A stretch of 64,000 nucleotides of DNA from Mytilus edulis (GCF_963676685.1 NC_092352.1:47926001-47990000), one strand, 5' to 3'; shown: positions 23,101 to 62,100, numbered from the stretch's first letter. Numbers and translations: made by a program. Notes: generated by a model from the sequence alone, not told the origin.

Positions 23101-26100
23101 TCTTCTTTACTTTTAAAAGTAAGCGGCCCCCTTCTTTTAAAGTTGTTCAAAATATAATAAATTTTCCCCGTTTTAAGTTAAAAATAAAGTTCTTTTTAAA
23201 AGTAAATGTTAAGTGTTACTCGTTACAATAAAGACCTAAGATAAGTCTGACAGAATAATCATAGACAACAATGGGGCAAGCTCATCTTATTTAGGGGGTG
23301 GGAAAAATATTTAGGGGGTGGGAAAAAAAGGAAAATTGTAAACAAATAAAACAATAAAGTGGCGAAAAAAATATTGTTTTGGCGAAAGAGGTAGCGTAAA
23401 CAACTAGAGGCTCTAAAGAGCCTGTGTCGCTCACCGCGGTCTATATGAATATTAAACAAAGGAAGCAGATGGATTCATGACAAAACTGTGATTTGTGATG
23501 GTAATGTGTTTGTACATCTTACTTTTCTAAACAGTCTTGCTGCTTACAATTATCTCTATCTGTAATGACTTTGGCCCAGTAGTTTCAGTGGAAGATGTTA
23601 ATAAAAATTCACAAATTTTATGAAAATTGTTAAAAATTGACTATAATTCAATTAGGGGGTCAATTGACCATTTCGGTGATGTTGACTTATTTGTAAATCT
23701 TACTTTGCTGAACATTATTGCTGATTACAGTTTATCTCTATCTATAATAATATTCAAGATAATAACCAAAAACAGCAAAATTTCCTTAAAATTACCGATT
23801 CAGGGGCAGCAACCCAACAACGGGTTGTCTGATTCATCTGAAAATTACAGGGCAGACAGATCTTGACCTGATAAACAGTTTTACCCTAGTCAGATTTGCT
23901 CTAAATGCTTTGTTTTTTTTAGTTATAAGCCAAAAACTGCATTTTACCCCTATGTTCTTTTTTTTAGCCATTGCGGCCATCTTGATTTGATGGCCAGGTC
24001 ACCGGACACATTTTTTAAACAAGATACCCCAGAGATGATTGTGGCCAAGTTTGGATTAATTTGGTCCAGTAGTTTCAGAGAAGAAGATTTTTGTAAAAGA
24101 TAACTAAGTTTTACGAAAAATGGTTAAAAATTGACTATAAAGGGCAGTAACTCCTAAAGGAGTCAATTACTATTTTGGTCTGTTGACTTATTTGTGAATC
24201 TTATTTTGCTGAACATTATTGCTGTTTACAGTTTATCTCTATCTATTATAATATTCAAGATAATAACCAAAAACAGCAAAATTTCCTTAAAATTACCGAT
24301 TCAGGGGCAGCAACCCAACAACGGGTTGTCTGATTCATCTGAAAATGTCAGGGCAGACAGATCTTGACCTGATAAACAATTTTACTCCATGTCAGATTTG
24401 CTCTAAATGCTTTAGTTTTTGAGTTATAAGCCAAAAACTGCATTTTACCCCTATGTTCTATTTTTAGCCATGGCGGCCATCTTGGTTTGTTTTTTTAAAC
24501 TAGATACCCCAATGATGATTGTGGCCAAGTTTGGTTTAATTTGTCACAGTAGTTTCAGAGGAGAAGATTTTTGTAAAAGTTAACGACGATGGACGACGGA
24601 CGCAAAGTGATGGGAAAAGCTCACTTGGCCCTTCGGACCAGGTGAGCATATAATTGACTCAGGGGAAACCCTGATTATGACCATGTCAACGATAACAGAA
24701 ATCCTGACTTCTTTGCTGGTGATAATAGACAGAAAATAAAGCGGTATTTCTTTTTGCAAATAGATGTGCTTTATCTGAACAATTTACCAAAACACCTATT
24801 TAAAAATAAATTATGAAATATCTAGGGAAAATATTTACCGCAGTATGCAATAACAGGAACTGTGCCAGATGGACAATTTAAACTGATTGCAGATGTAGAA
24901 CTATTCTCAACAATTTTATATATTATACTATTTTGTTGAAAATCTAACTCAGTTCCGTTTTCCAATGATTTAAGTTCTGTGACGGCGTCTCCAAATCCAT
25001 AAACACAGGTCTCCAGTCCATCTGAAATTTAAATCATACATTAGTTACATCGAATTTGTTTAAGTAAATTCTTCCTGTCTTGACGTTATTCATTTAAAAA
25101 TAAGGAAAGGTTTTATGATTGCAAATGAAAAAAAAATCCACCAAAGTTCAAATACAGTGGAGTCAAGCAAATATAGGCAACCGTACAGTCTTCATTATGT
25201 TCAATAATGAGATAAATCCATACCGTATAGTCGGCTACAAGTTCTGACATAAAGAATATAAAACGACAAACAATGTTGTGATATCCAATTGTTAGCGGTT
25301 AGTATTGATAGTTATAATCTTAACTAAAACAAAAATGTCACCGTTTTTTGAAACTGTTCCAATAATGACATATTATACATTTTGCTATTTACAATACTTA
25401 CGTGTAGTTGTATCACATGTTAATTTTACTGTAAAACCCACAGAAGAGTTAGTGTCTAGATTCTTTATTGGAATATCGCAATTTATAACTTCATTGCTGG
25501 TTATGGTACAGATGTTTGACGTCACACATGTAAGTTGCAGGGCAGCTGACTCAATTATAGCCGTTATGTTGTTTTTGACATCGGCAGTGGATGACGTATC
25601 ACATCCCTCCATGTCGTAATACGCTGTATGATTGACGTGAATTTTTGTTGATGGAACAATCTCTGAAATTATAATCAGACAGTAACACATTTATATATTG
25701 GGAAAATTATGCAAATTTTTTTTTTAGATCGCTGATTATTTAAACATTATACGGAGTCCCCCATTATGTATCATACTTGCATAGATATAACCTTTATCAC
25801 TGTTGTAATTATACATTACAAATCATTTTGTTTTAATGCATTACCTCCCTTTGTATTTGTAGTATATCTAGTATCATGATCGGACATAACTATTAACCTC
25901 ATCTTTGAAATGATTATTTTTTTGTGTATAAATGATTTAAACAGCATTCTGATTTAGTCAGATAAAAGTTTTAACAATAGAACCTTAGATACTGCCAATT
26001 ATAAAATTTTCAAACCATTCGGATATAAGAAATATAGTTCTTCCTTAAACTATCTCTTTGTCAACAAAAGTCTTGATAATACATAAGAAAAATTGCAGGA

Positions 26101-38100: not shown

Positions 38101-41100
38101 TATTGAGGTTTACCTAGATTGTCAAAAGTTATAAAATACAGATAACGCATTTTTGTAAACATTGTTAAGCAAAACAAATCGTGCATATTGTAGAGTAACA
38201 AAGCAAACAAACACGTATTAATAATTGATATTTCAATAATGAACTTATCTGTGAAACATATGCATAATAAAACGAGCATGAGTTTAATAATGACAGTTGA
38301 TCGGAACTGAAATACACATGGTTAATTTTTCGGCATTTGATGTCTTATCCAGGACGAGAAAAATCTGTGATTCATTATCTCATTTAAGCCAATAGCAGTT
38401 GTTGTATCTCAGTCACATTACAATGCAACAAATCAGAATATATACGTGATAAGTAATTAAATCAAGATGACGTGTATATCGACTGAAACTAATAGCTCCG
38501 CACCCTGATGCGAAGCAATTATGATTAATTTTAAAGTGAAATCGCACAATTTTGAACTTTAAATGTGATAGACTATTCAAAGGTCCATAGCTAAAAAGAT
38601 CGTCAAATAACTTGAAAAAAAATAGATTAAAATGGATCTTAATATGTTCAGTTGATTCTTGAAATTAATTGACGCTATAAAGTTTGAAGAACGTGATAGA
38701 AATTGGTTACATTACCTTTAATTACCAAAATGTGTCATATACATCATTTACTATATGTGTATTTGTTTAATTGTTTCGATTGCTACATAGTTTGTAATCA
38801 AAATTATTAAAACAATAGTCCGGCGACTACAAGCATATTTCAGACGAATTGTGCACATCCTGCTACAATAGATGAATCTTACGTTTACAGAACGGATGGA
38901 AATCCATAACCCAATTTGCATAAGGATCACTTCCATTTCTATAGCAGTGAGCGTTATTTGTTCCAACTAATGCCGAGTTATCTTGACACGAAAAAGCACA
39001 TTCGGATCCTCGCCTAGTTCCTGTACAGTTTAACTTCATATAAGGCAGTGGGTATAACTTAGGACATCTCAGTTCTGTAAAGAACAATATGGAATAAATG
39101 TCTCTTGTGTTAATATACAGCATGAAATAATATAGTTAAATATATATGAAAATTACTAAGAAAATATAATTGAATAATATATACAAGTGGTCGGAACTAA
39201 CAGAGTACCGAAACCATGTTTGTATTATACAAATAAGGTTACGTTTTTTAAGTTCTAGCGCTGAAGAAGTATAATTCAGCGCAGAAAAATTAACAATCCT
39301 GCAGAGAAGAAATGAAATCAAGCGTCTGATTGCACAATGAGTGCTGAATATGTAAAATCTTCAGCGCTAATTATGTAAAGTCTATCGATGTAGATGTGTT
39401 TTAGTCGTGGGCTGTAAAAATGAACTACATCAGTGAAGATGTAAATTCAAGCGCTAAATTGACAAACGGTTGTTCTAGAAGTAAGTTCCCTATTTATCTG
39501 TCACCGCTGAATTTAGAATTTATTTGCAGCGCTAGATTTTACACCTTCAGTTCTTGAATTTTAAAGTGAGCGCTAGAATTTAAATCTTCAGCTGTGGATA
39601 TTTCATATAAATGACAAAACTTTATATTTTCTTTATCTGCATTGATGATACATTTATGGAGTTATATTCATACTTTTGTAAATTGCTGATATATTCTTGG
39701 CCATTCTTTGGATTAGATTTGAAAGAACGTTACTAAACTCCGATAAGATGATTTTCAATATGCAATTATTTTGAGAAATAATAAATTATTATCTTACGTT
39801 TTACCACAATGTCAAATAAACACTCCCTTCCTTCATTGCCTGCTAAATCTGATACTGTATACTTGACATTATACGTGTTTACTCCTTGTTCGGAGGTTGG
39901 TGGTGGACCTATCACTTGTGTAGGTTCCAATCCCTTGTCCTTGTTGTCTATTACTACTGGTATATCCCAGGAAATATAGGCAGTGTCTTTGTTATCCCCA
40001 GGATAAAACATTAAAGTATTAGGGCATTGTTCAAAAGAAGGTGGTTCAACGTCTACAACATGAGAAATAAATAACATATATATAAATTAATGTGTACGAG
40101 AGTCTGAAATGGAAAGATAAAAGGCACGATTTGGAAGCTGTGGTTGTTGTGTGTAGTTTTATTTTTAATAAAAGCAGATGTTTTTTTATGCATACATCGG
40201 AGGGTACATCTTGCTGAATATTTGATAGATTTAGAACAAAAAGTAAGTTGTTAATATTGATGCATAGTATTAAAAATGTCTGTCTATAAGGAAAACAACA
40301 ACAATCTTCATTTTCTCTTAACAGTTTCGGTAAACGGACAGAAAGTCACAGGACAAAAAGTCACAAATAATATAATGATAATTGTTAGAATATATAAGAG
40401 AAATATCTTGAAATATTTACTTTTTAATACATATATTCATATTAAAGTTTAGGAAATGTGTCATTATACTTGATAAATGAAGATTTATTTAATTTTAATC
40501 ATGCAAAAGAAAGATTTATTGGCACAATGAAGCCATTAAAGTGCCAAGCCACTTTGACATTATGTTTGTTTTAACAATTATTTGATTTACTAAACATATT
40601 TTTTGATAAATTTTCTTTACAAAGTTAGATATTATACAATAGTTCAAGAGAAATACAAAACTATGTTTGTAGAAATAAGCGTTTTTTATTCAATGAAAAT
40701 AGTCAGAAAAAATGAATTGTGACTTTTTGTCCTGTGACTTTTTGTCCGTGACTTTTTTCTGTGACTTTCTGTCCTACATTCACATTTTCATGGTCTGTTT
40801 ACGTATTAAGGAATAACGTGTCATTGTTATAGTTGTCAAAAATATATGTTTGCTTTTTAATGACATGAGTCTCTAAAAATTCAAATAAAATTTGTCTTAA
40901 TTTTTATAAAACAGTTTTAAAAGAATGAATATTGACGTGCAAATATGAAATCAAGCGTTAGAGATGTAAAATGAGTGCTAAATGTGTAAAATCAACAGCG
41001 CTAAATCTATTCCCCTTTTTTTATCAATCATATACTTGTTAAATGTCAAGGTTATTTACCAACACAATCAGGATCGTATGCATTCCAAAATCCTGATGCC

Positions 41101-44100
41101 AGACAAACTTTAGTTCTCCTCTGGTTTGTAGGAATATCGAATCCTGCGTCACACCCAAATGTACATATAGATCTGAAGTAAAAATCTTCTGTGCACGAAA
41201 AGCTAAGCTTGCCACGTGGTACAATTTGTAAACACTTCTTTTCTGTAAACATGGAATATTATATATTGATGCAAATTAAAGTTGGTGAAGAATTACATTT
41301 ATCAAATACTTCTACTAAATAACTTTTGATTTTTATGATAATAGCATTAAATTAACGTAAATTCGTTATTTTTCGAGTTGGTGCTTAGCGGGCTGATATG
41401 AAAAGTTTATCACATGCTTCGATTGTTATCACATGCCTATCCGTAACGTTATTGCATGACATTCCGGTGATACTCGGAAAATAGCCATCAAAACTACGTT
41501 TTCAGTGAAAAACATTACAAAGTAGTGTGCACAACAATGATTTGGATACTGGAAAGTAAATTGTGTAAAATAATTTAAAAAAAATAGCAAATTAAAAATT
41601 AATCGATTTTTTTAAAGTTAAAACATAATTTAGAAAGTTACTTTTAAAAAAAGATGACTTTTTCAAATAGTGTTCATCATGTATATTTAGACAATCTTTT
41701 TTTGTCGCATATGATAGAAAGATTTCATATCGAATGTACTTAATTTGGGGTCTAAAAAGATCATAACATGTCATTTTTCCTATCGCATGTATTATCAGCC
41801 CTCGGTCAATATCAGCCCTCGAGCCATGCGGCTGATTTTGAACCTAGGGCTGACAATACATGCGATATGAAAAATGCCGTGTTATGATCTAATATTATCA
41901 TATGCAGTAAATGAGATATTGACTATGGTTTAAAAATCCTTGGACTATTATTCGTTAAATAAAAATGTTGAGCTCGAAAAATGCGTAAATGTTAGATATT
42001 AATTTTCAAAATATTCCCAGTATAGAGTGATATCATCTAATCAGGAATTAAATTGAACATCTATTTAAAAAAAACATTGATAGAACGTCAAACCATATCA
42101 AACAACAGTGTTTGTTAATCGTACAGAAACACATTGAAAGATTAACAAAAAGGGTGATGAGGAGATTAACCATTTCCTGAGGGTCCTCACAGGGTTCAAC
42201 GATTTTATTATTTTTTCACTTATTATTTTTATTTCCAGGTTTCTCAATTTTGTTACGTAAAAGAAAATCTAAGTATTGACAGTGAAGGTCGGCTAAAAAA
42301 ACCTTCCCTAGTTAAACAAAAAAGGGATGATTTCAGCTTCTTGTTGTGAATAAAACGTTTCTATGTAAAAACTCCAAGCAGCGCCTGCATTCAGAGTTTA
42401 CATAACCCTTTTAATACGATATTTTAGGGTTTGTAGTTCCTATCATGACTTTCCTGATAGAGGATTGCTGCTAATAAGGAAGCTGTTAAACAAAGAGTTC
42501 TTAGAGTTGAAGTCGCAGACATTCCTTTTATATTTTACGAACGTTAGTTGGTTGACTGGTATTGAATTTTTTACAGATGATATCGAATTTGTTCCTATTG
42601 TCGTGTATACAATAAAGTCACCTTTTCTCCATAAATGTGACCTGCCAATGAGGAACACCACGGGTGACACATGCAGAACAAGATTCTTTAACCCTCCAAA
42701 AGCAGCTAGGGGTTCGTGTTGCTCTTAAGTTTTATGTGCTGTGTTTTGTGTACTGTGTTTTGTATATATATATTTTTTTATATCCATGGTGTAGCCGGTT
42801 TTATTTGTTTTAGTTATGACTTTGGATGTCTCTTTTGTGTGTTTCGTATTGCAACTCTTTAACAGTCTTGCAAACATAATTAATAGATCATGAAGACTGT
42901 AGATCCGTTTATCCTAACTTGAAAATCCAAACAAATCTGCTCTCGTGCAAAGGTCAGCACTTTTTGAAGGAATTTAAAAATACAATTAAGCGCAAGCATC
43001 ATACACGTAATAACTGTATTGATTTTGATTCATAAAGGATTACTGTTTTATATCTCGAGAGACGATCTCAATTGAAAACAGTTATATTTGTAGTAGGCAA
43101 CATAATTCTAAACACAAATGATAAGTCCAGTATCATTTAGGTATTTTAGGATTTTCTTATCCCAGGCATAGATTACCTTAGCCGTATTTGGCACAACTTT
43201 TTGGAATTTTGGATCCTCAATGCTCTTCAACTTTGTACTTGTTTGGCTTTATAAATATTTTGATATGAGCGTCACTGATGAGTCTTATGTAGACGAAACG
43301 CGCGTCTGGCGTACTAAATTATAATCCTGGTACCTTTGATAACTAATTATACTTAAAACAACCGACAAATACTCTGGAAAAATTGCCATCCTTAATACAA
43401 ATGCAGAAATTTATGATAGGTTTTCAATAAAAACAACTGCTATATTTTTTACGGACTATCTTCTTAAAAATAGACATGTCCGCTATCATATGCTTATTTA
43501 AACTATATTATCTATCAAAATTAATGTCAAGTGGAAAGCTGATAACTAAATTATAATCTATTAAATGTTTATTTTTGTTCCAAAATATTATACGAGCTAG
43601 ATATAGGATTTAATTACATTTATACATGACATATGAATTGAGAACCAGGAAGAACTGCACCTAACGTTTTCCTGTCGATAACTTCCTTATTGAGACTTAC
43701 TTTCACAATATGGCTGATTTGGGCTTGACCATTCACCTGTTTCTAAACATTCTATTCTTGATGGCGCTCCCTTAAGCGTATGTCCCTGGTAACAGCCATA
43801 CCAACAGACTGCCCCATAAACCATATCACTGCTCGGATGACAGGTTCTATATCCATCTGGTATGCTGTTCGAACGCACCGGACAACGTATGACTGGACGT
43901 TCATATGAAAATTCAGAAAATTTGAATTTTAAAACTTTTTTTAATTTTTAAGTTATCAACAAAGTGTTCATATTTAAAAATAATATCTCTAATTAATAAC
44001 TTTATTTGTCATGCTTTGCTAATGATTGAAATAATTCTAATTCCCTTGAAAAATTACATTAAGGCATGTCTGATAAATTTTAACTGTAAAATGCCGATGT

Positions 44101-47100
44101 AATTATAAGTGTTTGGATACATTTCTTTCGTTGCTTTAGGATTTTCCTCTGACAAAATTGAAGACACCATTTGATTTTGCAGCGTATATATCATTAAATA
44201 TACTCATATTATCATGTTACAGTTAGCGTAGTTATGTAATGCACACATCACAATAACTTGTAAGCAACCATAAGTGTTCTTTGTGTTATTTGATTTTTGT
44301 ATATATATATGTTTCGATTAAAATAAACGCAAAGCTTTTCTATATACATTTTTCTATGAATACTCTGGATTCATTGATTTTCGTGAATAAAAATTAGATT
44401 GATAAAAAAGTGTATATTCGTGAATATTTGATTTCGATGTCTAGTCAAGATTATATTAGAACATTTGAATTCGTGGTCCAACGAAGCAAGCGAAAACTGC
44501 TATGCAACGAAAAATAATAAAACCATAGAAGTATACTCTTTGTTTTTTTTTTATTTTTCATTACTGTATAAACTGTTCATAGAGGAGGGGTATGACGACT
44601 GCACAATGCTATGCGGCGTTGTCATAAAAATGATAGTATAAAGGGTAGGTTCCAGCCCCAGTTTTGGAGGAAGTAAAGAATCAGATTTACTCTTACATTG
44701 TTAGTTTGATTTTTTCTAGGCACTTTATATGATATTTTTTACCTTTTACTTTAATTTTGAAGTTGCAAGTAGCCATATTTCCTGCTCGATCTCGGGCATA
44801 ATAACCAACTTCAGTGGGTTTACCATCTTGTTCAAAAAATGGACCTCCCGATCTATAAGGGCCATTAATATTGACGCTTTAAAATAAAATAAAAATGATT
44901 GTTTGTATTCTATTTTTAACTGTTCACTTAATAATGACGTGAGTATGGATGCAAAAATACGAGAAAGACTGATGCTCGTGAAAATTATAATCATTCGTGT
45001 ATATTATTTAAGTAACATGTATCGTTTTGAATCGTTTAAATAATGGAGCAGACTTTCTTAATTTAAAGATTTTTGTTATAATCTATAAAAACTGACAACG
45101 GACGTTAAGATTATCAAAGCACTGTAGTATAACATGCAGCAAAGTACGGTAATATTTTTTATCTATTAAATCTCATGCATGTTGTTGTCTTGTACTTGGG
45201 ACACTATCAAAATGTACGCATAAAACAAAAAAATAATTACATTTAATCATGTTAATTGTCAGAACAAATTATGACGACGAGGAGAACTTTTATGCTTTCA
45301 TTTGAAAATAATTGGAATGAATCAAGTGTGTACAGACTCTTACAGAAAAATAGAAATAATAACTAGATGGCATTTCAGAGGTCTTTAAATTGATGAAACC
45401 TGAGTGATTTTCATTGCAAACTTAAACGAACATTTTATATGAAAAAAACGTATATTTTGATTATCCAGCAAATTTGATAAAACCTAATCGGTCCATCTTT
45501 GTCATCCATGGCTGTTGGAGACGTCCAATCAACAAAGGTATGGTGCTTAAATGGAAGAGCTGCAACTGTTCTGTCATGTGGACAGTTGTTGATCTGTGGC
45601 TTAGTTTTATCCCCTGAAAAGTAATAGAAACATAATTTTACAAAACATCATTGGCTTAACATAAGAGATTTCAATCTTGCTTAATCAGCATCTTTTTTAA
45701 TTATAACTTCTGTCTCTCTACTATTTGAAAAGCTACATTCTTATAATGCATTTATATATTATCTATAAACATTATTCGTATAAGGATCAGCCCAATAATG
45801 TTAGATCTGTTGTTCTTCCGGTATCCGAACGCATGCTACTGAGATATCATGGCACCAAATCGTCTTGCGCTGTGCCTGACGTGATAGACTACTCGACCAC
45901 TACTAGTCTTTACAAATAATAAAGCTTTTGGAGGGTGTTACCTTTCCTTTCCGTTTTTTTATCTAGCGTCGCAACACAGTACATGATAAATAAGGCATGA
46001 TGATAAAACTCTTACAGATCAGCTAAATTATCTTTCGCACAGGATCTTCCAAGTTAATGCAGGATGCAATCACATAAATAATTATATTTTAAGTACTTCT
46101 GAACCAGTGACAACTTTACATCAGATGTCATCCATCGGATCAGCAGTGATGGTGATTCAAGGCTGAAAACACATTCTGTATACAATTCGTCTAATCATCT
46201 GCCCGACAATGTCTTCATGTCATATATACCATGTACTGTATTATATATACACAAGACAGTTAATTGGTGCACGCCCCAGTTTTTTGTTGTTGAGAAATAT
46301 GGATTTGGGTTTTGGTGTAAAAAAGGTGCGAAATATTATATTAGCGATCTGTGTATTGAATTGACTTTAATCCTCAATTACCAGAACTGTTCCAATTCCA
46401 TTAGTTAGAATACTAATATAAAATATAACTTAGTTGTGCAGTTGATGAAATCGAGTTTCTTTTAGTCCCCGAGGTTATCTCTAGCTCAGTAGTCAGTACA
46501 TCGGTACTGACATGATTGAACAAACTTTCCTAAAATTATCCGTTTATAAATTTTGAAATTATCAAGAAACTAAGGTTTCAACTCCCTCAGGCAAAGTTGA
46601 AATTAAATTAATTTGGCTATTTATTTTAGGTATTTTTTGTCTCTTCAACGGTTTCGGTACTTATACATCCTCGGATTTCAAATGTTTGGCTTTGAGCGTT
46701 CCTGATGAAAGTATATCCAGTAGAGCGCTTCGGAAGCATTAAATTTCTAAACGCGTTGTTTTCCATTATGATGAAATGGGATATCTTTTATCTCATTTTC
46801 AAGACTTGATTTTTAAACTTGTGATTATCAAAGTTGCATCTATTGCCAATTATTTGTATTCCTCATCTCAGATATGGCCTTAAACGCAGTCTCTCATCTC
46901 ATTAACGCATCCATGAATTTTAGGTCACGATGACATATTTTTAGGACCCTCCTGACTTTTAAATACGCATCTTACTGACAACATATTATTTCTCCATGAG
47001 TTGTATCTCAGATATTAACTGAACACAAACTTTAATTGGTCACTGATATATGAAATGTAGGCCACGATTACCTTATTTTTATCAGCACCCCTTGGTTATT

Positions 47101-50100
47101 CAATACTCATCTATTAACAAAATGCCATGAATTATGGATTTTATCTTTGTGACCGACAGATAAAACACTATATCCCTTCATATGATTTTATATGCGCATG
47201 TGCAGAAAGTGAAAAGTTGAGGTTTTTTATCTCGGATATATTTTTGCTAAAAGTATAGAATTATAGACATTCAAAAGCAGAATTTTTGCAAACGGATTAC
47301 TGAAACAGTTTTATTTGGTGTCTTGGTGCTTAATTCGATTGATTTTGAGAGATTTTTGAGTTAGACCAGTAAAATCAACGATACCTCAAATATGAGTAAT
47401 TCTCAGGAGTTAGGAGAAAGTACTCGGTGTCCAAATGAAACAGTGGTAACAGCGGAAATTCACAATGAGGAGATAGAATCGAGCAATGTGAGTACCAGTA
47501 TAAATAACTCTTGTAATAACAGTAACATAAGAAAACGCCCAGCTTCTGGAAACTCTGATATATCCGATAATAAACGTTCTAGAAATCAAACACCTGTGAG
47601 TAAAGATGAGAAAAGCAAACCAAAACCTAAACCGAAAGCTAAAAGTGAAATGAAAGAGCTAAAAGATATGATGCTAGGACTAACAGATAGTATGAACAAT
47701 ATGTGTATTTCGTTAACTCAACGCATAGACTCATTAGAGAAAAATATGTCAATAGAAATAACACAACTCATTGAAGAAAAGGTAAAAGTAGAAATCGACC
47801 AGGTGAGACAAGATTTTAATGATCAATTTAACAACTTTAAAGATCAGATAAAAGGGCTGGAGGCAAAAGTTAGTACTCAAGTCAAATCGTATTCAGATGT
47901 GGTAAAACAAAATAACTGTAATGTGATAATCCGTAATCTACAAGAGGACCCTAGAGAGGAGTCGAATACAAGTATTTTGAAAAAAACTGTTATTTCGTTA
48001 GTGCGGGATGGTTTAAATCTTAAGGATGTTTTTATTGAAAGTGTTTCTAGAAAGAAAAGTCACAATAGTAAGCCGGGTGTAATTGTTGCAGCTGTAAGCA
48101 ACAGTGACCAAAAAAGGGAGCTTATGAAAGCAAAGCGTAATTTGAAGAACGTACATAAATTCAAGGATGTGTACATCGAGAATGATATGTCATACTCTGA
48201 GAGGAGAAATGAAGCAAACTTCCGCACTCTGATAAGAGCGTTTCAACACGAAAATCAGGCCTTTACTATGAACGGTGGCCGAATTGTGAAGGTACATCAT
48301 AACAACCAATCGTCAGTGGCAAGTGGTAAGGGCGGAGAAGGCAAACAGAACGAATCCGTCAATGGACGAAATGTACATCAAAATGAAGGAAACAACGGCC
48401 AACGACAAGGATACAGCAATCGTGGAAATATTAGAGGAGGTGGACGCGGAAGAGGGCGTGGTAAAAAATTCCAATAGGTTACATGCGGATTTTGGAATGT
48501 GAACGGATGGAATTGTGACAGGAACAGTGATAAATTTAAACTTGTGTGTGCATGTTTAAATAATAAAGAGCTGCATATTCTGGGTATCGCAGAAACACAT
48601 CTGGTTAAGAACAATACAATTAGTGTTGATGGATATACGTGGTTTGGTCATAACCGAATAGGCATTCATATACGCGCAAAGGCCGGCTCTGGCGGAGTAG
48701 GATTTTTGGTTCGAAATGATCTGATGGAGCTTTTTAACGTTATAGTTGTGGAAGACTCAATAGACGGTATATGTTGGCTTAAGTTCGAGGATAAGTTAAA
48801 TTTGGACAATATTTTCTATACCTGTGTAGTTTATTTGCCACCAGAAAATTCAACGCGCGCCGTGAATGTACATGAATTTTTAGAATCGCTAATGTCACAA
48901 ATGTATACGATTCCAAAGGGTAATCAGTTTTATTTATGTGGAGATTTTAATTCAAGATGTGGTGATTTAAATGACTTTGTTGAAGGTATAGATACCTTGC
49001 CAGAGAGACAAGTAGTTGATTATAAAACTAATAAATACGGCAGCATTTTCTGTGAATTTTTAGCGGACATTAACTGTTGTATGTTGAACGGTAGGAATAA
49101 TAGTCACAATGACTATACCTATGTATCGACAAGAGGATTAAGTGTTGTTGACTATTGTATAGTGCCATACGAAATGTTAAAATCCTTTGATAGGTTTGAA
49201 GTCAGGCGCGTTTCTGCGCTTATTGAAGATGTGGACATTATCGGTATTGTAGACCCGACACGGTGTATGCCAGACCATTCTTTACTCAGTTGGTCAATGC
49301 ACTTGAACATTCATGTTGATGAAAACACCGAGCCAAAAGACAATGCGGCTAGCTTTAAAACCAAATATGACCTTGGGAAAATACCCGACGACTGGTTAAA
49401 TAGTGAATCATTTATATTGGATATAGATCGTATACTATGTACACTAGAAGAGTCTGAAGCTAATCAGTGTGATATTGACAAAACATATGAAAGCTTTATT
49501 AATAGTATCAAGTCGGAAATGTCGGAAAAAATCCCTAATAAGATCATTCAAATTAGCAACGGTTCCAGTAATAAGCATCGGAGAATCAAGAAACCTTGGT
49601 GGAGTACAGAATTAACAGACCTTTGGAACGAGGTGTGCAAATCGGAAACTATGTATCTTAAAACCAAAAGTTGTCATTCTAAAAAACAGTTCCGCCATTT
49701 ATTTTGTCAAAACAGGAAATTATTTGACAAAAATGTACAACAGGCAAAGCGTCGTTATTGGTATAAAATGCAGGATGATTTGACCAGTTCATGTGATAAT
49801 CCGAAAGAATTTTGGCGTAAAATTGGAAAGATAGGCATTGGTGCAGAAAGGCAACGTAACATACCGATGGAAATAAATTTAGAAGATGGTTCGGTATCAA
49901 CAGATCCAATTTCAGTTTTGAATAAATGGAAAAATGATTTTTCTTCAATGTTAAATGTAGAAAATTGTATACAGCCTTCTGAAAATGTCGGCTCTAAAGA
50001 TCAAGATAAATGTGATTATTTATTGGATTGCGAAATTACAAGTGAGGAAATATTTAATGTAATAAAAAAGGCTAAAAATGGGAAGGCGCCCGGTCTTGAT

Positions 50101-53100
50101 GAGCTACCAGTAGAAGTGTTGAAAAACCAAACTGCTTTATCATTTTTAGTTCGTTTGTTTAATGTGTGTTACAATACGGGAAAGGTCCCTGTTCTATGGG
50201 CCAAAGGTGTAATTGTACCAGTACCGAAATGTTCGTCGTCTGACCCCAGAGATCCTCTTTCATATCGTGGAATAACTTTAGCTCCAGCTACTTACAAGTT
50301 GTACTGTGGTGTTCTTGACTGTCGTTTGCGGGAAAAGTTTGATGCATCGGATATTATCCACGATGAGCAGAATGGTTTCCGAAAAGATCGTAACACCATT
50401 GATCACCTTTTGTCTATAACTAGTATAATAGAGTCTAGAAAACTACGTAAACAGTCTACATATGCTGCTTTTATTGACTTTAAAAAGGCATACGATACTA
50501 TAAATAGAGCATTGTTATTTAGCAAATTAGAGTTACTTGGTGTTAGTTCTAAAATGATAAAGGCATTAAGATCTTTGTATAATAATGTTCAGTCTTGTAT
50601 TAAGTTGAATGGTATTTTATCTGACTGGTTCCCTGTTAATACTGGTTTGAAACAAGGGTGTATAATTTCACCATTATTGTTTAATTTTTTCATTAATGAT
50701 TTAATTGATGAAGTCAAAAAGTTAAATGTTGGTATTAGCATAGGTGAAGAAAAAGTGTGTATAATGTTATATGCAGACGATGTAGTTTTCTTAACAGATA
50801 GTGAAAGTGAATTACAAATCATTTTGAATACTTTAGAATGTTGGTGTGATAAAAACATGATAAAGGTTAATTTAGAAAAATCAAAAGTTATGCATTTTAG
50901 AACACCTTCTGTGCCATGTACTAATTTTCCTTTTGTTTTTAATGGAAAATGTGTTGATAAAGTATCAAATTATACATATTTAGGTTTATTATTAACCGAA
51001 CATTTGAGTTATGAGGATATGGCAAAAACAGTTGCCAAATCTGCCAGTAGGGCATTAGGGTTACTAATAGCAAAATGTAAAGCTCATGGTGGTTTTCAAT
51101 ATGATGTATTTACAAAATTGTTCAATTCAATTGTATGGTCAGTGATTGACTATGGTGCCTCTATTTGGGGTTCTAAAGAATTTTCATGTATAAACGCTGT
51201 TAAACATAAGGCTATGAGATTTTTTATGGGAGTGGGTAGATATACCCCTAACTTAGCACTTTATGGAGATATGGGATGGAAACCATGTATTGTTAAACAA
51301 TGGTCTTCCATATTTAGGACATGGTCACGATTTAATAAGATGTCTAATTGTAGACTTAATAAGAAAATTTTTCTTTGGAGTAATAATATCAGTTATAATA
51401 AAGTAAAAAATTGGAACTGTAGAGTGAATACAAAGTTTAAAGAACTTGATCTTAATCAGTATTGTAATATTGAATGTATTTTGAGCAAGTCTGTTATTAA
51501 AGATATTGAAAACAAACTATTTATTATGTACCAAAATAATTGGCATTTAAATTTACTAGCTAATGAAAGCAGTAAATTGCGTACTTACAGGCTATTTAAA
51601 TCAAAATATTGTACAGAAAAATATTTAAGTATTACTATGCCCGGTAAATATAGAAGTGCATATGCTAAATTTAGAGCAGGTGTTGCTCCGATTAAAATTG
51701 AAACTGGCAGATATGAAGGTATAGATGTAAATGAAAGGTTCTGTTTTAATTGTAGAAAGAATGATTTGAATATAATTGAAGATGAAAAACATGTTTTATT
51801 AGAATGCCCAGAATATGCAGATTTGCGAACGATATTTTTTAACAGTGTATGTAATATAGAAAGTAGTTTTAGTAATTTAAGTAATGAAGAAAAGTTTTTA
51901 TTTATGTTTCATGATGATAGAGTTTTACAGCCAAAATCTGCCATGAAGTACTTTTTAAGAGAAAGTGTATTTTATACTCGTAATAAGTGTTTATAATGTT
52001 GTTTGTTTTCTTTTGTATAATTGTTTTTAATAGTATGGTGTTTTATGCTAAGATATATTAATATATGTAATAGATGTAATATCAATGTATTTTAATCTGT
52101 GTTTTTACAGTCTCTCATAACTCTTTTTAGAGTGGCTCTTTTATAAACTGTTAATATTATATTGTGTTGTATATCAAATGTTTTAAAGAGGTGAGACTCT
52201 AATAAATTATTTGTTTGTTTGTTTTTGTTGTTCAAAAACTTCCTTTGACAAAAGATATAAAAATCTTTAAGCAAACAAATGTCAAATTATTCCCCTCAAT
52301 AAAGGTTGAGAAATCATGGACATTATAATATTTTCATTTCTATTCGGTTTTGGTGAAAATTAAAAATATCAACAAACAGTCATAACAGTATGAATGGAGC
52401 TTTGTATGATATTTAACAATGAATTATGCCCAAAACGAGAAGGGTCAACTTGAACTTACTTCCAGTTAAGAGAAATATTGATAATTGTTAAAAGGCTCAT
52501 GGTGACTTCACGATGGAAGACAACAAAACAATACAAACGTTAAATTTTGGGGTTTTACAATGTATATATTGAAATTAATATTGTATCATGTACATTTACT
52601 CCACATCCCTTCATATTTTCATTAGGTAAACGACGAACTTGAATACTTCTTATATACTACAACTAAATATCAGAAAGTTCAGACAGTATAGCAATTCATT
52701 CTCATCGTAACAGCTGAGAAATCTTCGACAAAATGTGTTTATTTGTATTTGTTTGCAGTAAAATTGCAAAGAATTAACAATTTCAGAGGTTTGAAAATCA
52801 CTTTCAGTTACTGAAACATGTTACCTATAAAAACACCTAGAGATCGTTTACGTTGAAAACAAACAAAACAATGGTAAATATATCAAATAGTTATTATAAC
52901 AAAAAGAATGCAAATTATAAATCATATCCTTCGTTCTGACGACGAGTAGTTGTAAGAACATGTTACCATGTTTTACATTTCTAAAAATAACCTGATCTTG
53001 GTATTTCCAAAATATGGGTCATGCATTCTGTGCAAAATAAAACATTGAACATTTATAAATATGTTAAAGTTTATTTTTGACATCTTGAAAAGATAAAAAT

Positions 53101-56100
53101 ATTTTGATACAAAAGTAATATATACTTTTCACGTCTTTGATCTTTGGAAATATCTTTTTTTTATCTGTATTTTGACCTCTCTACCTAAAAATTTCTTTGC
53201 ATGCAGACGTTTAAAAATTGCTGGTTTTATCCAACGCAATAATAGGTTGGAATGTTGTTTTCAATTTAAGGGGGCTCGCGGGTCTAAATCATTTTTTTGG
53301 ATTTAATATAGGATTTTGCAATATTTTTCTATAAATGAACTTTATCTTATACTTAATAGAAAAATGAAATAAAAAAATGGGGTCACCGTTCATTTACGCT
53401 CACAATCTGCCTTCGAAAGAAGCATACATTTTTTTAAATTTCCTTTTTTTCTGTTGAACTAATAAGAGAAATAACGGTAATATCGAAATAAAAAAAGAAC
53501 TAAATAACAGAAATCGCTCAAATTTTACAATTATTTAGTTTATGTACAGCTTATTCGAAAACAACAATAAAAATATAGGTCACCGATGAGTTAAAAAAGA
53601 TATTTCAATTTCAATGCCAAAAAATTGCATTTTTGCACCAAAGGGAGATAATTTGGATCTTTTTCAATGATATCTATATTTTAAAATGTCACCTGCGGCC
53701 AACACGAATTGATTTTTTTGGAATATTTTTTGTACCATATGATAAAGTAACAACTACGAAAGGTAATAAGTAAAATTTGTAATGAAAAATAAATATTTTT
53801 TTTTCTTCTGAAAATCTTATACTCGCGAGCCTCCTTAAACTTGTTTTTATATATATATATATATAACATCGTAAGGTTGATTTTCTAGTCACTTTTTATA
53901 TATATATATATATACATATATATATTGACTCTTTATTGACTCTTTAAATTCAAAAGTTTATCTAAAAATGAGGGTACTTTTTATACGGGCTTCCAAATAC
54001 CGTTTCGATCCCTAACATCACCGAAGAGACATTTATTGTCGAAATTCGGATCTGGTGTACTAAAAAAATATTGACATCGTATGTTTGTGGCATAACATCG
54101 TGGCCACAAGTAAAATTATTTTTCTGTTTAGTATTACATTTATATTAAGATCCATTTTGTTACATCTTGTGATCAATTTTATTTGGCAATCGCCAATGGC
54201 AGTCAGCAGGGTTAAAGAACATCAGTTGTTCGACCTGTTAGTCAAATGCGTTTTGTTTAAATATACTTTTTCACTTTTTTGCTCTTTTGGAAAATGTTGT
54301 GTGTGCTGTTTTTAGATCCTTCTACAACGAAATTTGTTTTACATGCACACGTATAAAAATTGCGGTTTTTATCCAACGCAATCATAGGTTTGAACGTAAG
54401 TTTTCAATTTAGACTCGTTTATATATATACATATATATACAACTCGTTTAAACATCAACCCAACAATGTTAGATCTGTAAATTTGCTTGAAGCCCAGGTG
54501 GTCGTGTGGTCTAGCGGGACGGCTGCCGTGCGGGCAATTTGGTGTCACGATATCTCAGTAGTATGGGTTCGAATCCCGGCGAGGGAAGATCATAAAGTTC
54601 GCGAAAGCAAATTTACAGATCTAACATTGTTGGGTTGATGTTTAGACGAGTTGTATATACATTATGTACACAGCCATATGTATCACCATCATTGCTGGTG
54701 ATCCGATGGATAATTCTGTTGTAGAGTTGTCACTGACTCAGACGTACTTATATATATTCATATATATATATATACAACTCGTCTAAACATCAACCCAACA
54801 ATGTTAGATCTGTTAATTTGCTTTCGCAAATGTTTTGTTCTTCCCTCGCCGGGATTCGAACCCATGCTAATGAGCTATCGTGACACCAAATCGCCTGCAC
54901 TGTAGCCGTCCCGCTAGACCACACGACACCTTGGCTTCATAAAAAACGAAGATTTCGGTGGCCGGGTGTTACCTTTCCAGGTCAGTTTTAATCTAGCGTC
55001 GTACTACAGTACATGATATATAAGGCATGAAGATGTTATTGTTACAGATCAGCTAAATTATCTATAGTAAAGGATCCTACAAATTAATGTAAGTTACAGT
55101 CACAGAAAATAATTATATTTATAAGTACGTCTGAGTCAGTGACATCTCTACAACAGATGTATCCATCGGATCGCCATCAATGATGGTGATACATGGTTGT
55201 GTACATAATGTATATACACTCGTCTTAATATCAACCCAACAATGTTAGATCTGTAAATTTGCTTTCCCAAATTTTTTGGTTCTTCCCTCGCCCGGATTCG
55301 AACCCATGCTACTGTGATATCGTGACACCAAATCGCCTGCACTGCAGCCGTCCCGCTAGATATATATATATATATATATATGTGTTACGATGTTACGATG
55401 TTACGATGTCTACAATATATATATTTTTTTGTAATTATTTTATTTTTGATGATGAAACATGTGAAATTACATAGTACAGTATTCGATACACATTTTAAAA
55501 ATAAAGTAATACTTGATAAATCAATTAAGTCATATGGATATAATAAGATATATAGATATAAATATTACAAAAAGATTTTGTTAATTAATCAAATAAGTTA
55601 AATAAAAGCTGCTTCTAACAAATGCCATTTCTGATCCATTTTTACTTTTTGTACAGGGGTTAAGAAACATACAGAGTATTTTTCTATATTAATCCAATAT
55701 TTTAAATATTCTACCCCACCACATTTTGTGGGGGATATGTTCTTACATCTACATTTGTATATATAATATTTGAAATACAACAAAATATTGTTAACTATTT
55801 TACTGTTGACAAAATCCTCAGACACACCTAAAATGACTTCTTTTGCACTGAAAGGCAGGAGAATGCCATAATTTTTAATCCAATCTATAACGGATAGCCA
55901 GAAGTTTTGTGATACATTACATTCCCAAAAAATGTGAAAAATATTTTCTTTAATTTCTGAACAAAAAGTACAAAGTTCAGTTTCTTTTAATTTACATTTC
56001 AATAAAAATGAATTACATGGTAGAATCCTATGAACAATCTTAAATTGGAAGTTTTGCAAAAAAGAGTTTCTGGTTATGATGAAGGGCATGGAATAAATAG

Positions 56101-59100
56101 CATTCCAATCCTCAATCTGCATATTTAAATCTCTATCCCATTTTTCACGGGAAGATAAAGATAACACTTTATTATCCTCCAAAAATAATGTATAGAAAAA
56201 TTTACAAGATTTTGGTTCCTTTTTAACTTTATCAATAATTTATTTTCAATATTTTCCAGTTTTGAACTACCTTCTAATATACTTTTCCATCTCTTTGGAA
56301 TCGCACTTAAAATACTATAAAATTCTACAAAATTAGTATTGATATCATACTTTTTTTTAAATTCATCATATGAGAATAATGTATTATTATCTGACATAAG
56401 ATCATTAATGAAGAATATACTATTTTCAACATATTTGAACCTCAAAATCATCTTGCCATCTATTTTGATGTTTGGATTCAGCCATATGGACTGGGTCAAA
56501 ATTTCAGTATTGTTTTCAGCTTTAAGCTTATTTTTTAACTTGGAAAAATTTACCAGGATATCATGCCAAAATGGATTAACTTTTTCTGCTAAATAAAGTA
56601 AACCTTCCTGACTTAAGTGTAAAATCTTGTCCCCCCCAAATTTTTGTATATAACTAAGTAGCAAGACTTTCCAAGGAGAGTAGTTTTGGGGATCTAATAA
56701 TTTATACAGCCAAGACATTTTTACACTATAGCAAAAATAATAAATATTGGGCATCTTAAGACCACCATCACAGTGTTCGGACATTATCACTGCCCTTTTC
56801 ACTTTATCAGGTTTTCCTTTCCATAAAAAGTTAAAAAATATATTCTGAATCTCCCTCAAAACCCCTTCTGGGGGGTTAGGAAGGACAGTCAGAACTTGGA
56901 CCAAAATGGGAAGTGCTAAAGTCTTAATAACTACAACCCTCCCAATATATGTCAGTTCTCTATAAGCCCAAGTATTGAGTAATGACTTGATACTGTTTAT
57001 CTTGGCTGTAAAATTACATAGAGTTTTATCCATTTTAGCAAGTTCAAACCATATACCTAGTAGTTTAAACCTCCCAGAATGGTTCCAAACAAGATTTTTT
57101 TCTGGCAAAAGTTTTTCCATACTACCCTTTTTTGACCCAATCCATACGGCTTCGGTTTTGTCAACATTACACCTAAGTCCAGCACATTCTGAAAATTTAT
57201 CAAACAAGTATAAACACTGATTTAGGGATTTTTGGTTACCATCCAGGACTACGGAAGAGTCATCAGCGTATTGACTCAACAGAAATTCAGAGTCATTAAT
57301 TGTTACACCTGCAACCTCAGGGTCATTTTTAATAGCTGCACTTAGTAATTCTAGCACTAAAATAAATAGGTAAGGAGACAGAGGATCCCCTTGACGGACC
57401 CCCCTTTTTAATGAAAAAAATTCTGAAATATAACCATTATTCAACACAGCACTAGAAGCATCACAGTAGCAAGCCTTAATCCAATTTATAAATGTATGGT
57501 CAAATCCATAAAACTGCAAAGCCTCATATATGAAAGACCATTCGACTGTGTCGAAAGCTTTTTCAAAATCGACTAAAAGTAAAAGTCCAGGAATGTCGTC
57601 TTCTTCCATCTTTTCCATTAGATCATAAATAAATCTAGTACATTCGCCAATATACCTACCTTTAAGAAAACCTTTTTGTGTTTGACTAATTATATTTACC
57701 AAGACCTTTTTAAATCTATTTGCTAGACTGGCTGTAGCTATCTTATAGTCTACACACAGCAGTGTGATAGGTCGCCAGTTCTTAAGATAAAACTTTGACT
57801 TACCCTCCTTTGGTATACAGGTAATGAGTCCCTGTCTTTGAGTGATAGAGAACTTTCCATACTCTAAAGCCTCATTTAAACATCTTACTAGTGGAAATTT
57901 AATATCATTCCAGAAAAATTTATAAAACTCAACAGTGAAGCCATCTATACCAGGTGATTTAGAGTTCTTCATATGTTTAAGAGAAGACAGACATTCCTGT
58001 ACTGATAAAGGTCCTTCACATGATTTCACCTCTTCCTCAATAGGTTTTGTAATAAAAGGATTGTCATGCTGAAGAAATGTGCTCCTGTGAGTCTCAAGTA
58101 ACAATGGGTTAGAACTAGTATACAATTTTTTATAAAATTGTTTTTGTTCATTTCTAATAATACATGGATCCGTTATCTCAGATTCGTCCTCCAGAATAAG
58201 TTTGGGAATAATTTTTTCTGTATAATGTTTTTTTTCCAAATTACAAAAATAGTTACTTCCCTTTTCCCCCTCTACTTGCCATCTTGCCTTTACTCTTGTA
58301 ATTATCCCTTTAACATTTTTTTCTCTTATTACTTTTAATTCTAGTTCCAACCCTTCCTTTCTTGTTGTACTGATGGCAAGTTATTCTCTATGAGTTTTTT
58401 TATCTAATAATGATATCTTGTATAATAATTCTTTTTCTTTATTATTTTGTTCCTTCTTCCGGAAAGACGAAAATGAGATTGCAGATCCACGAACTTTCAA
58501 CTTAATCATATCCCACAAAAGCTGATAGCTTATATTAAACTGTTTGTCCTCTGTCTCAATATCAATAGATGGATCAGACTCATATTCTTCAATGACAGTT
58601 TTGATATCCCCTTTAACTTTTTCAATAAACTCAGTTTCCTTCAAAAGACAATATATATATTAACTATCATATTCAACATCTGATACACGACAATTTTTTT
58701 TTCCACACGTATTTTTTAGAACTATTAAATGTGAAAAATACTAACGTAGACTCAGTAGAGGATAGATGAATAAGCTGATTATCATTACAATAACGTCCAC
58801 AATCGTCTGCCGTTTTCTTCTCTTCAAAGGTGTTGCTAGTTCTTTAGTAATTGCTAAAGAACCTAATAATGAGAAAAATGATTGTACGTAAATTGATCAA
58901 AACTGAATTATATTGTCTATTTCAAACTGTCATAGAAGAAAAAATGTATATGTGAATGCGTATGATTTTGATCGAAGTTGAATTATAAAAACATAATAAC
59001 TATTTTCAGATATAACTTTCAAAAAACGAAATGGCAATCTTAAGAATTTTAAAGATTTTGTTGATGCTTATTTTAAGCGATGCTATAACTAACTAATAAT

Positions 59101-62100
59101 ATAAATATTGGAACACATATATTCTCTGATGATCAAGCAGGCTTATTCTTTTTTTGTGTGTGGATACTATCATAGTTTTATCGAAATCTCACAATAAAGA
59201 TACATAACATGAAGTTTAGAACATAGTTTGTTTTCCCGTTCAATTTGACTTTTTATTGATTAATGTACATAAATTTAGACTTACAATCTTTATCTTCAAC
59301 CGTCCATTGTCCTCTTTGACAGAATGCACAGGAAAACTCATTTGTAAATTCGCATTTAACTGTCAATTTTGTACCATGAGGAATATCATCGTTAACGTTT
59401 GAATGAGCTGGTTGAACATGAAAATGTTCAGTCAATGCAGATACTGGACACTATAAACATACACATAAAAAAGATGTAATGTAAAGGCAAATACCGGACA
59501 CAGTTATAAGATATACACATGCAAAATGAACTCCGAAGAAATATACCGGATCCAATATTATAATTGAACACATATGAAAACGTACACTAAAGAAAGATAA
59601 TGGACACTATCAAACATTTGCACGAAAAAGTTCTGTCAAGGCAGATACTGGACATTATAATCAGTAACATTATAACGTCAAACACGCGACTCTCAACTAG
59701 AGTTGATGTGAACCTTGCCATGCAGTCATATGACCTCAAATATGTGGGTTGTTTTTAAATACATATATAAGTAAGCAATGCATGTGGTTGTTAAATTTTA
59801 TATATCCTTTTTTGTGCTTCTTTGTTAAATGTTTGTTTGTTTTTGTTCTGATTGAGATTGTGACATGCAGATGTTTGTTATATCCCTATTTAGACAATTA
59901 CCTATTATGTCTGTTTTATTAACTCATCTATATAAATATAAAGGAATGTGATGCGACTGTCCTACTAATACGAGGTTTAGCGCTATAAAAACCGGTTCAA
60001 TCCACCATTTTCTTCATTTGAAAATGCCTGTACCAAGTCAGGAATATGATAGTTGTTGTCAATTTGTTTGATGTGTTTTATCATTTGATTTTGCCATTTG
60101 ATTAGGGATTTTCCGTTTTAAATTTTCCTCGGAGTTCAGTATTTTTGTGAGTTTATTAGTTACACATACACATATAAATTTTACTATAAAGAAAGATACG
60201 GGACACTCTCCACTGTTAAACATGTATATGAGAATGTTTTGTCAAGGCAGATACCGGATCCTATAACTAAACACGAAAAATGTACTCTTAAAACAGAAAA
60301 GGGATACTATTAATATACGCATGAAAATGTTCTTTCAAGAATGATACTGTATACTATAGACACACACATGAACATGTTCTATGAAGCAAATACATGACCC
60401 TATAAACATTCACTGATGAGTCTTTTGTAGACGAAACCCGCGTCTGACGCAAATACAAAATGTCAATCCTGGTATATAAGATGTATTTATATGTAAATAT
60501 AAAGGCTTTTCACCCTCAGGAATATATTACGTAGATTTAGCGAAACGTTTAGATATATTTGGTCATCAATCCTCGCGTGTCATTGATGAGTCTTTTGTAA
60601 ACGAAAGGAAACGGATTAATATAAGCTAAAAGCTTGTTTCTGGATCCTATTAATTATACACTTGTTTTATTATGTAAAATTTAGCTTGTTTCTCTATTGT
60701 CATAAAAATTCATAATATCTAATAAAATTAATAGATTTAGCTAACAAAGTCCTTATATTTCAATAAGGTAACTTTATTTGTTAGTGGAAAATTGTTTAAT
60801 GTTAATTAGGCTTAAATTAAATATTGTTTGCTTTCCCCTCTCTGTGATTAAAGTAAGATAACTCTGGTCAATTTTCCTAACAGTCAATCATTATGGGAAG
60901 ATGATATAGTTCTGTTTTTCATTTATAGTCTTTTTCAGAAAAGTTCTAATTGTTTTGGGTAGATCCTACTTACAATTTTACACTCTAGCATTCAACATCA
61001 GTTAGAAGCTTCTGGAATAAATTGGTGGCTATGGTGTACTGTTTTGTGTTTGTGCGTATGTGTGTTTGTGTTAGGCGTTATTACACTTCTTTCATGTATT
61101 TGTCTTAAGGGATTGAGTAGAGCAGATAAGTTATATCAGCTTTCTGCTTCATTTGAGTTCTGGCATAATGGTATACACCATATCGATCTTAGAAACAAAT
61201 GACTTTACGAGTAGAAGGACGAATGCTGTTGGACAGTTTGTGATGCATACTATAACTTGAAACATATTTTTGACAGCACAAATAATGTTTTTTCACCGGC
61301 ATATTGTACCTCAAATTAAAAGTAGGAAAACAGTGTTTTTTTTTAATAATTTTCAGGATATTGCTTTAATAGAGAACAATTTTATGAATACTTGGAAGAT
61401 GCCTTTTCTGTGACATAGTCACTTGTTTCAGAATATTCTCCCCTATATACCTTAATGGTATATTAAAGTATAATGAAGGAAATTTTATTCTGTAAGGAAT
61501 GCCTGTGAACTGTGATTTAGAGTAGATTTTCTCATCACTCTAAGAAAGTTAGTGATGATGAAGTCAGATTTGACCTTGCTTATTTTTGACGTATGAACAC
61601 GGTATGAAAAAAAATATTTATAAGATAACAAAATAATTCTTTATATTGGTATATATTAATTTTAAACATTTCAAAACAAATAAAATAGATTATAGATATA
61701 CATAAATGTCTTTGATAAACTAATGAAAAAATACGAGTATCTAGTACATTACAGATTTTGTAACGATTTTAAATTCAAGAAAATAACCCTACATGTATAA
61801 GATGTAATTATAACCCTGTTCAAGGTAGACAATCAACATATTGACTTTCTGAAATTGAACATAGACTCATAGTTCAAAGGAATATAACTCTTGTATACAA
61901 ATGACACATCAATCGAATTATTTAGCTGTGAATGTGTGCGCCATCTTCAAGGAAGATTCTAAATTATCAATATAACCATAAGTTGTTGATCTATAGATAC
62001 TGACGACTAATGAATGCTAACCACAGTAAAGAATATTTGTTTGAAACTTTTTAACACTTACTCCGAAAAATGCTCGACCTACTTGACTTTCAAAGCTCAT

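Follow-up and report, generated by a model that had tools for sequence, protein, structure and literature searches.

A type I hammerhead in a solo, 5′-truncated retrozyme copy from Mytilus edulis

A stretch of 64,000 nucleotides from Mytilus edulis (GCF_963676685.1 NC_092352.1:47926001-47990000; termed here the window) carries the catalytic nucleotides of a hammerhead ribozyme, antisense within an intron. What kind of hammerhead is this, to what repeat does it belong, and how did that repeat reach its present position? An earlier note on the sequence had described an intact minimal hammerhead in a short non-coding repeat of retrozyme or Penelope type, cleaving as a dimer and able to yield small circular RNAs. 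All positions below are those of the window, which is AT-rich eukaryotic DNA.

The hammerhead motif and its host intron

The motif comprises the following elements, all on the plus strand.

43269–43312, plus strand: type I hammerhead ribozyme (RF00163 match, shuffle controls)
43269–43274 with 43307–43312, plus strand: stem I, 6 bp including two G–U pairs (sequence reading)
43275–43281, plus strand: catalytic core C3–A9, CUGAUGA (sequence reading and RF00163 alignment)
43282–43285 with 43291–43294 (span 43282–43294), plus strand: stem II, 4 bp with a 5-nt loop
43295–43298, plus strand: GAAA (sequence reading)
43298–43305, plus strand: palindrome ACGCGCGU, perfect, 8 nt
Within the palindrome, plus strand: stem III, A–U and C–G pairs (2 bp) closing GCGC (sequence reading)
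43304–43306, plus strand: GUC triplet, with the predicted cut between 43306 and 43307 (from the RF00163 alignment)

The Rfam model of the type I hammerhead (RF00163, Hammerhead_1) aligns with 43269–43312 (+) over all 45 model positions, with a score of 33 bits and an E-value of 2.4e-4 (Infernal). This is a full-length match with all core bases and three stems, one bit below the gathering score of 34 bits; the best-scoring relative of the window hammerhead reaches 33.3 bits. The type I core elements CUGANGA, GAAA and NUH are all present, and stems I, II and III can pair with stem I open, all 12 of 12 pairs being formed in the window copy. The exact motif is matched once in the 64-kb window and in none of 100 dinucleotide shuffles, a lenient control in that the search pattern was taken from the tested motif itself. 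A relaxed descriptor checking stems I and II finds only the same site in the window, and none in each of 20 block shuffles. The sequence at 43269–43312 is a genuine type I hammerhead motif. The core, stems I and II, the 2-bp stem III and the GCGC palindrome all lie where the earlier note had placed them, both on direct reading and in the RF00163 alignment; the cut that it predicted after 43306 agrees with that alignment, and the Infernal search bears out its identification of the motif.

Two further Rfam matches in the window, to MIR845_2 and S15, lie far under their cut-offs and are taken as chance. The match to MIR845_2, with 35.5 bits where the cut-off is 80, falls on a long near-perfect hairpin at 41771–41875 (−), possibly a small inverted-repeat element.

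The canonical metazoan hammerhead has a 6-bp helix I, a 4-bp helix II, a helix III of 1–2 bp and a palindromic loop (Cervera and de la Pena 2014, PMC4209133). According to the available portions of the same paper the min-HHR has no helix III or loop 3, a helix II of 7–8 bp and an extra base between positions 9 and 10.1. The window motif is therefore not 'minimal' as had been stated; unlike the min-HHRs of Penelope-like elements it has a 2-bp helix III with a tetraloop, a 4-bp helix II and no extra base after A9, and no reverse transcriptase (RT) frame adjoins it. It is built like the ordinary type I hammerheads of invertebrates, with no predicted extension of stem I past 6 bp. It resembles the min-HHRs, as far as those portions describe them, in the palindromic helix III region, the G10.1–C11.1 pair, the predicted activity as a dimer and the occurrence mostly as lone copies.

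The hammerhead is antisense within an intron of a sushi/HYR gene on the minus strand, two of whose exons are as follows.

43701–43894, minus strand: host exon with a sushi domain, upstream of the element's intron; GT donor at 43700
41052–41242, minus strand: next host exon found, with a sushi domain; AG acceptor ends at 41243; left limit taken from the open frame

A contig of one sequencing run (X9) matches the exon at 43701–43894. Exons coding for HYR, TSP1, EGF and ephrin-receptor-like domains come next on the minus strand; the exons from sushi to ephrin-receptor-like suggest a single gene of SVEP1-like type. The host pre-mRNA carries the reverse complement of the hammerhead, and is therefore not cut by it. 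Elsewhere in the window there are exons of a filamin-like gene at 6326–12897 (+), a LINE-type element at 47365–51996 (+) that looks intact and young, with frames of 370 aa and then 1172 aa (endonuclease and RT), and at 55598–58380 (−) a second LINE-type RT frame (751 aa, RVT_1) followed by one of 213 aa. One filamin exon, of 72 aa, has 96% identity to a protein cluster of Mytilus trossulus, against 82% for the next mollusc with a name and 87–88% for two entries without one (38 hits in all), which places the genome in Mytilus.

The repeat unit and its family

The hammerhead forms part of a longer element, and three further related features are found in the window.

43148–43345, plus strand: solo, 5′-truncated mussel retrozyme repeat copy, unit positions 197–355 plus about 39 nt past the cut
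22035–22299, minus strand: worn relative of a second subfamily in the orientation of the host gene; core and palindrome broken
46440–46790, plus strand: more distant sister of the repeat, aligning colinearly with all of the unit; GC-rich hairpin region kept
60410–60606, plus strand: partial tandem of two worn relatives; the first with intact core and a palindrome mismatch, the second broken

A scan of metagenome contigs with the core pattern found five loci (L006–L010), one of which (L007) contains a tandem array. This is arranged head to tail with a unit of 355 nt from cut to cut (38.6% GC) and runs for about 2.4 units to the end of the contig; G8 is altered in one of the two hammerheads. Stop-free frames of the unit reach at most 50 aa in the sense of the ribozyme and 88 aa on the opposite strand. 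The earlier description as a mussel repeat of the retrozyme/Penelope circle, without coding capacity or autonomy, holds good. The window copy is 93% identical over 205 nt to the L007 unit, and the local alignment to the next unit extends to 43352 with two mismatches, giving 39–46 nt past the cut in all. It contains 198 of the 355 nt, with one hammerhead, and about 150 nt of the unit are missing. The 197 bp previously taken as the repeat unit are thus a fragment of the 355-nt unit seen in L007, although the limits given for them (43149–43345) are close to those of the insertion, contigs of the family covering approximately 43148–43349.

The family is widespread in sequencing data. All 18 sampled words of the element are contained in 20 of 24 listed runs (11 studies, six coded organism labels); none of these is on record as RNA, which says nothing about expression. 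Four of the 20 runs were aligned to 42900–43950, with 2966, 2624, 12153 and 463 contigs. Cover of the element starts near 43148 and stops near 43349, and the flanks within the intron are uncovered in all four runs (this is no evidence of a silent locus, and an empty site is not visible). The loose ends before 43148 agree at 0.67–0.76 (at least 45, 46, 137 and 11 contigs, among the matches listed) and correspond to the last stretch of the absent unit part, showing that the copy is cut short on its 5′ side; the upstream continuation of the family contigs is the 355-nt unit in all four runs. The loose ends behind 43345 agree only at 0.40–0.44 (at least 69, 56, 188 and 18 contigs, among the matches listed), and it follows that many copies leave the family at this point for unrelated sequence, in all four runs. 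A further class lies behind 43349 (at least 24 and 70 contigs), and in one run begins with the letters that follow in the unit. None of these figures is a copy number, since the assembly gives each unique flank its own contig and collapses tandem copies. Loose ends at 43267 and 43313, found in all four runs, mark a second hammerhead subfamily that is also present in L006, L008 and the window. The ten variable positions listed within the element spare the core, the palindrome and the pairs of stem II; one lies in stem I (43271) and another in loop II (43287, A/T).

The window hammerhead has no tandem partner, the nearest relatives on the same strand being worn and 3.4 and 17 kb away. Tandem Repeats Finder reports no array at the locus, a result that is not relied upon because it likewise missed the evident array of L007. 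Release of a circle requires two cuts, and thus the production of circles that had been proposed does not apply to this solo copy with its one hammerhead.

Over 128 nt of the hairpin part, the sister repeat at 46.4 kb is 72% identical to the unit. Its hammerhead-like core, near 46703, is worn and differs from that of the unit, with an AGCGCU palindrome. A similar worn core is located at 4337 (within approximately 4325–4385, +), and neither of the two is now predicted to fold as a hammerhead. A weak 43-nt match to the hairpin part at 24682–24724 (−; 77%, E 0.005) may be a very old relic or chance. In the partial tandems (60410–60606 (+) in the window and 2015–2199 of L006) the tail of the ribozyme is followed by a 5′-clipped piece of the unit with the hairpin part skipped, and go-back joints of this kind also occur in the run contigs. 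The relative at 22 kb, in the sense of the host gene, has a broken core and the antisense copy at 43 kb an intact one; in L006 the intact core is also opposite to a frame, of 426 aa (COR-A). Ribozymes on the sense strand of introns could be selected against, on three cases only.

The locus L009 consists of the repeat (1–222) followed by OmpA and aminotransferase-V frames (338–1122). It is probably a chimeric metagenome contig, and on account of these frames it is discounted as an independent 3′ end. With a mussel-type repeat placed beside bacterial-type genes in a marine metagenome contig, hammerhead matches of this kind can pass for bacterial. Two scans of genome contigs gave no match. Five loci matched in viral contigs (L001–L005) do not belong to this family, their flanks being unrelated. 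They are hammerhead-like motifs between genes, with RF00163 matches of 26.9 and 30.4 bits and, in L001 and L003, a second copy within 1–2 kb.

About 5000 type I hammerheads have been described in M. galloprovincialis; they form two families of similar sequence, are without the archetypal loop–loop contacts and usually lie in repeats of approximately 350–390 bp (Cervera and de la Pena 2020, PMC7229834). In the available portions of that paper circles are abundant, and RtcB closed a monomer derived from the dimeric construct Mg353 into a circle; for this ligation test a 2019 preprint (10.1101/721605) gives a mussel construct of 375 nt. The present family shares with these retrozymes the genus Mytilus, a type I hammerhead with unextended stem I, the lack of coding capacity and the existence of a tandem form. 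Its unit length of 355 nt compares with 350–390 bp and with Mg353, its GC content is low (38.6%, against a criterion of under 45–50%), and there are two similar ribozyme subfamilies, presumably equivalent to the two published families. The likeness to the published retrozymes (GenBank MN642551-MN642576) is one of description. A 15-nt motif had no match in a full-text literature search. The family is almost certainly the mussel retrozyme family already described. The window locus differs from the published form in being a solo fragment of about 200 bp, not in tandem. Its ribozyme is of the working type of the retrozymes and its descent is from this family, but the circle cycle is closed to it.

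Predicted folding and the dimer question

In a monomer the palindrome ACGCGCGU forms the 2-bp stem III with its GCGC loop, while in a dimer it can form an 8-bp intermolecular helix III. The 197-nt element is not predicted to fold as a hammerhead (z +1.2), and in a 59-nt piece the hammerhead fold is outcompeted in the prediction by another hairpin.

43263–43269 with 43284–43290, plus strand: competing hairpin, disrupting stems I and II in the window variant (prediction only)

The hammerhead fold of the monomer (−5.7 kcal/mol) is 3.5 kcal/mol above the minimum (−9.2 kcal/mol), with a probability of approximately zero for stem III. When two 44-nt cores are cofolded the double hammerhead is the minimum-energy structure, at −29.5 kcal/mol, as would be expected if the palindrome permits a dimer in the manner proposed in the earlier note. 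With 10-nt flanks a competing fold (−33.9 kcal/mol) becomes 2.4 kcal/mol better than the double hammerhead (−31.5 kcal/mol), and the gain in energy on dimerising is not above that of shuffles (39 of 150). In a transcript spanning both hammerheads of L007 one full cross-copy junction is predicted, with stem I, stem II and helix III all at P ≥ 0.76; the second junction, where the upstream core has G8 changed, is not formed.

Cleavage only as a dimer, as had been claimed, is not established for mussel. A single cloned mussel repeat underwent self-cleavage at about 0.1 per min (PMC7229834), and most invertebrate type I motifs are said to cleave as monomers in the available portions of one review (PMC7761336); dimer cleavage of the Penelope motifs is summarised in another (PMC6765202). 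The window ribozyme is intact in sequence and would probably cleave in vitro, and better as a dimer.

There is no both-sided covariation at any of the 12 pairs of the hammerhead, and one-sided change at two (seven distinct sequences among nine rows). Five of the loci were selected with the exact core pattern, so invariance is partly built in, and the broken 22-kb copy was left out. The lack of both-sided change, which had been named as a possible refutation, comes from sequences too few and too similar for any refutation. Both-sided changes are seen only in the part of the unit missing from the window copy, at three of 25 predicted pairs in an alignment of three sequences; one of these pairs is in a tetraloop hairpin common to the sister repeat at 46.4 kb.

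This missing part includes unit positions 45–130, the only strongly structured part of the 355-nt unit, with a predicted energy of −40.4 kcal/mol (z −3.9, none of 200 shuffles as low; the region was picked after viewing the fold). The whole circular unit of L007 is no more stable than its shuffles (z −0.68, 23 of 100 as low), although the circles of mussel retrozymes have been described as highly self-paired (PMC7229834). Stems I and II have probabilities of no more than 0.06 at 37°C in the predicted circle. Blocking of the ribozyme by the A-part through a long antisense match was considered and rejected; the predicted circle has the core paired to AT-rich segments close by.

The shared 3′ end and the origin of the copy

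Eleven pieces of the repeat were aligned to the 355-nt unit to map their ends, drawing attention to the sequence that follows the ribozyme.

43313–43345, plus strand: stretch between the ribozyme and the common 3′ end of dispersed copies, a candidate start site for reverse transcription (loose ends behind 43345)

Five of the eleven pieces end 41–51 nt past the cut (the window copy, L010, L008 forward, L006 and the probably chimeric L009). Three others, of the second subfamily, drop out at +18 to +26 where the tail differs, two are too diverged, and one is cut at the site by design. The 5′ ends that lie away from a contig edge are spread over unit positions 76, 145, 158, 193, 197, 316 and 321, of which 316 and 321 may be an effect of subfamily divergence. 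No solo piece runs on into the hairpin. The shared end falls in a predicted single-stranded, AC-rich stretch (unit 35–47, unpaired probabilities 0.66–0.96) before a stable stem that begins at 48. A linear monomer released by cleavage would terminate at the cut, and therefore the template must have spanned the junction, as a circle or an uncut multimer. Both flanks of the window element are AT-rich and there is no target-site duplication, the longest word common to the two being 6 nt and away from the junctions. The pattern of a fixed 3′ end, variable 5′ ends and an AT-rich target is seen, but in few copies, with no empty site visible and with one locus probably chimeric.

The pattern has a counterpart in the RT of Poseidon from Anolis (PAc), which starts internally in AC-rich sequence downstream of a hammerhead (Frangieh et al. 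2024, PMC11167929). In vitro this enzyme needs RNA 3′ of the start that is not itself copied, prefers AT-rich targets and mostly uses uncut RNA, according to the available portions of that study. The mussel insertions are similar in ending at a fixed site past the hammerhead cut, in AC-rich sequence and with AT-rich flanks. They differ in the distance, approximately 40–50 nt past the cut against 85–92 nt for autonomous PAc (subtracted from the published numbers). The internal start was observed in vitro for PAc (PMC11167929), and we infer it for the mussel repeat. Insertions of Penelope-like elements also often carry a tail of 30–40 bp (PMC8557442). It is tentatively suggested, at a little below an even chance, that the dispersed mussel fragments record a fixed internal RT start some 40–50 nt past the cut, immediately 5′ of a conserved, GC-rich hairpin that is absent from the short insertions and would be bound by a Penelope-type RT. 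The available portions of PMC7229834 make no mention of the shared 3′ end, and no statement of a fixed 3′ end in animal retrozymes was found in the open texts and search listings consulted.

The window copy is likely to represent a dead end, a daughter insertion of the Mytilus non-LTR retrozymes made by reverse transcription in trans. The source loci would be tandem arrays of the non-coding unit of about 355 nt, as seen for L007, the multimeric transcripts of which would be cut once per unit by the hammerhead. The monomers would be closed into circles, probably by an RtcB-type ligase as published for mussel, and an RT supplied in trans, most likely Penelope-like, would copy the RNA from approximately 40–50 nt past the cut. 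Copying would run backwards over the cut site, or over the point of ligation, and in many cases stop early; in the window copy a stop after about 200 nt would have left one hammerhead without a partner, antisense in an intron. Penelope-like elements have been proposed, and not demonstrated, as the mobilisers of mussel retrozymes (PMC7229834), and no autonomous partner element was found in the window or in L006–L010. In vertebrates solo monomers are regarded as offspring unable to transpose, and retrozymes are linked to pseudo-LTRs (bioRxiv 10.64898/2026.07.22.740005, available portions).

That relationship is one of the points in favour of a different reading, in which the copy is the 3′ end (pseudo-LTR) of a 5′-truncated autonomous Penelope-like element and the tandem 355-nt arrays are a by-product. 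A fixed 3′ end with variable 5′ ends fits it equally well, and in the available portions of PMC4209133 Penelope-like elements carry type I hammerheads with a palindromic helix III, mostly single in truncated copies. It is nevertheless unlikely, given what adjoins the element. The sequence upstream continues in all four runs as the 355-nt unit and not as a Penelope frame, and no RT or GIY-YIG frame is adjacent. Two of the nine window ORFs that were domain-scanned contain RT, one of them with an APE-type endonuclease, and none contains GIY-YIG; reading of the ORFs of at least 90 aa in L006–L010 gave no RT candidate (three were domain-scanned). The window hammerhead is moreover without the min-HHR traits.

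An origin at the level of DNA, by deletion or recombination of a longer array or by satellite capture in break repair, would involve no RNA step. We judge it very unlikely, because DNA breakage does not predict a fixed end, and the 3′ ends lie at +41 to +51 in five of the eleven pieces, with varied 5′ ends and no solo piece entering the hairpin; in all four runs contigs pass from the family into unrelated sequence at 43345. Such an end could nonetheless be mimicked by a hot spot of AT-rich microhomology, the AT-rich flanks on both sides and the lack of a target-site duplication would suit this origin, and partial-tandem and internally deleted copies do exist (60410–60606, L006 and the joints in the run contigs).

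Co-option of the ribozyme, with an antisense host transcript cut at 43306 in cis or with a retrozyme RNA as dimer partner so as to regulate the host gene, is highly improbable: dimerisation in trans is geometrically possible and runs presumed to be RNA contain the family in abundance, but the competing hairpin is predicted, and the intact core, set against the broken core of the host-sense relative at 22 kb, is a contrast of two copies only and is expected of a young copy that is 93% identical to the tandem unit.

The retrozyme daughter insertion is most likely an ordinary mobile-element leftover and not something new. The locus itself matters little, being a single copy of a highly abundant repeat whose kind has been known from mussel since 2020, and is useful as a record of mechanism. 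If the proposed internal start is correct, it would provide direct genomic evidence of how, and by which class of enzyme, animal retrozyme RNAs retrotranspose, and a hypothesis in the literature would gain a defined RNA and a start site. Should the 3′ end hold genome-wide, the mobilisation of retrozymes would be tied to the internal-initiation chemistry of Penelope-like RTs reported in 2024, with the hairpin as the likely protein-binding signal.
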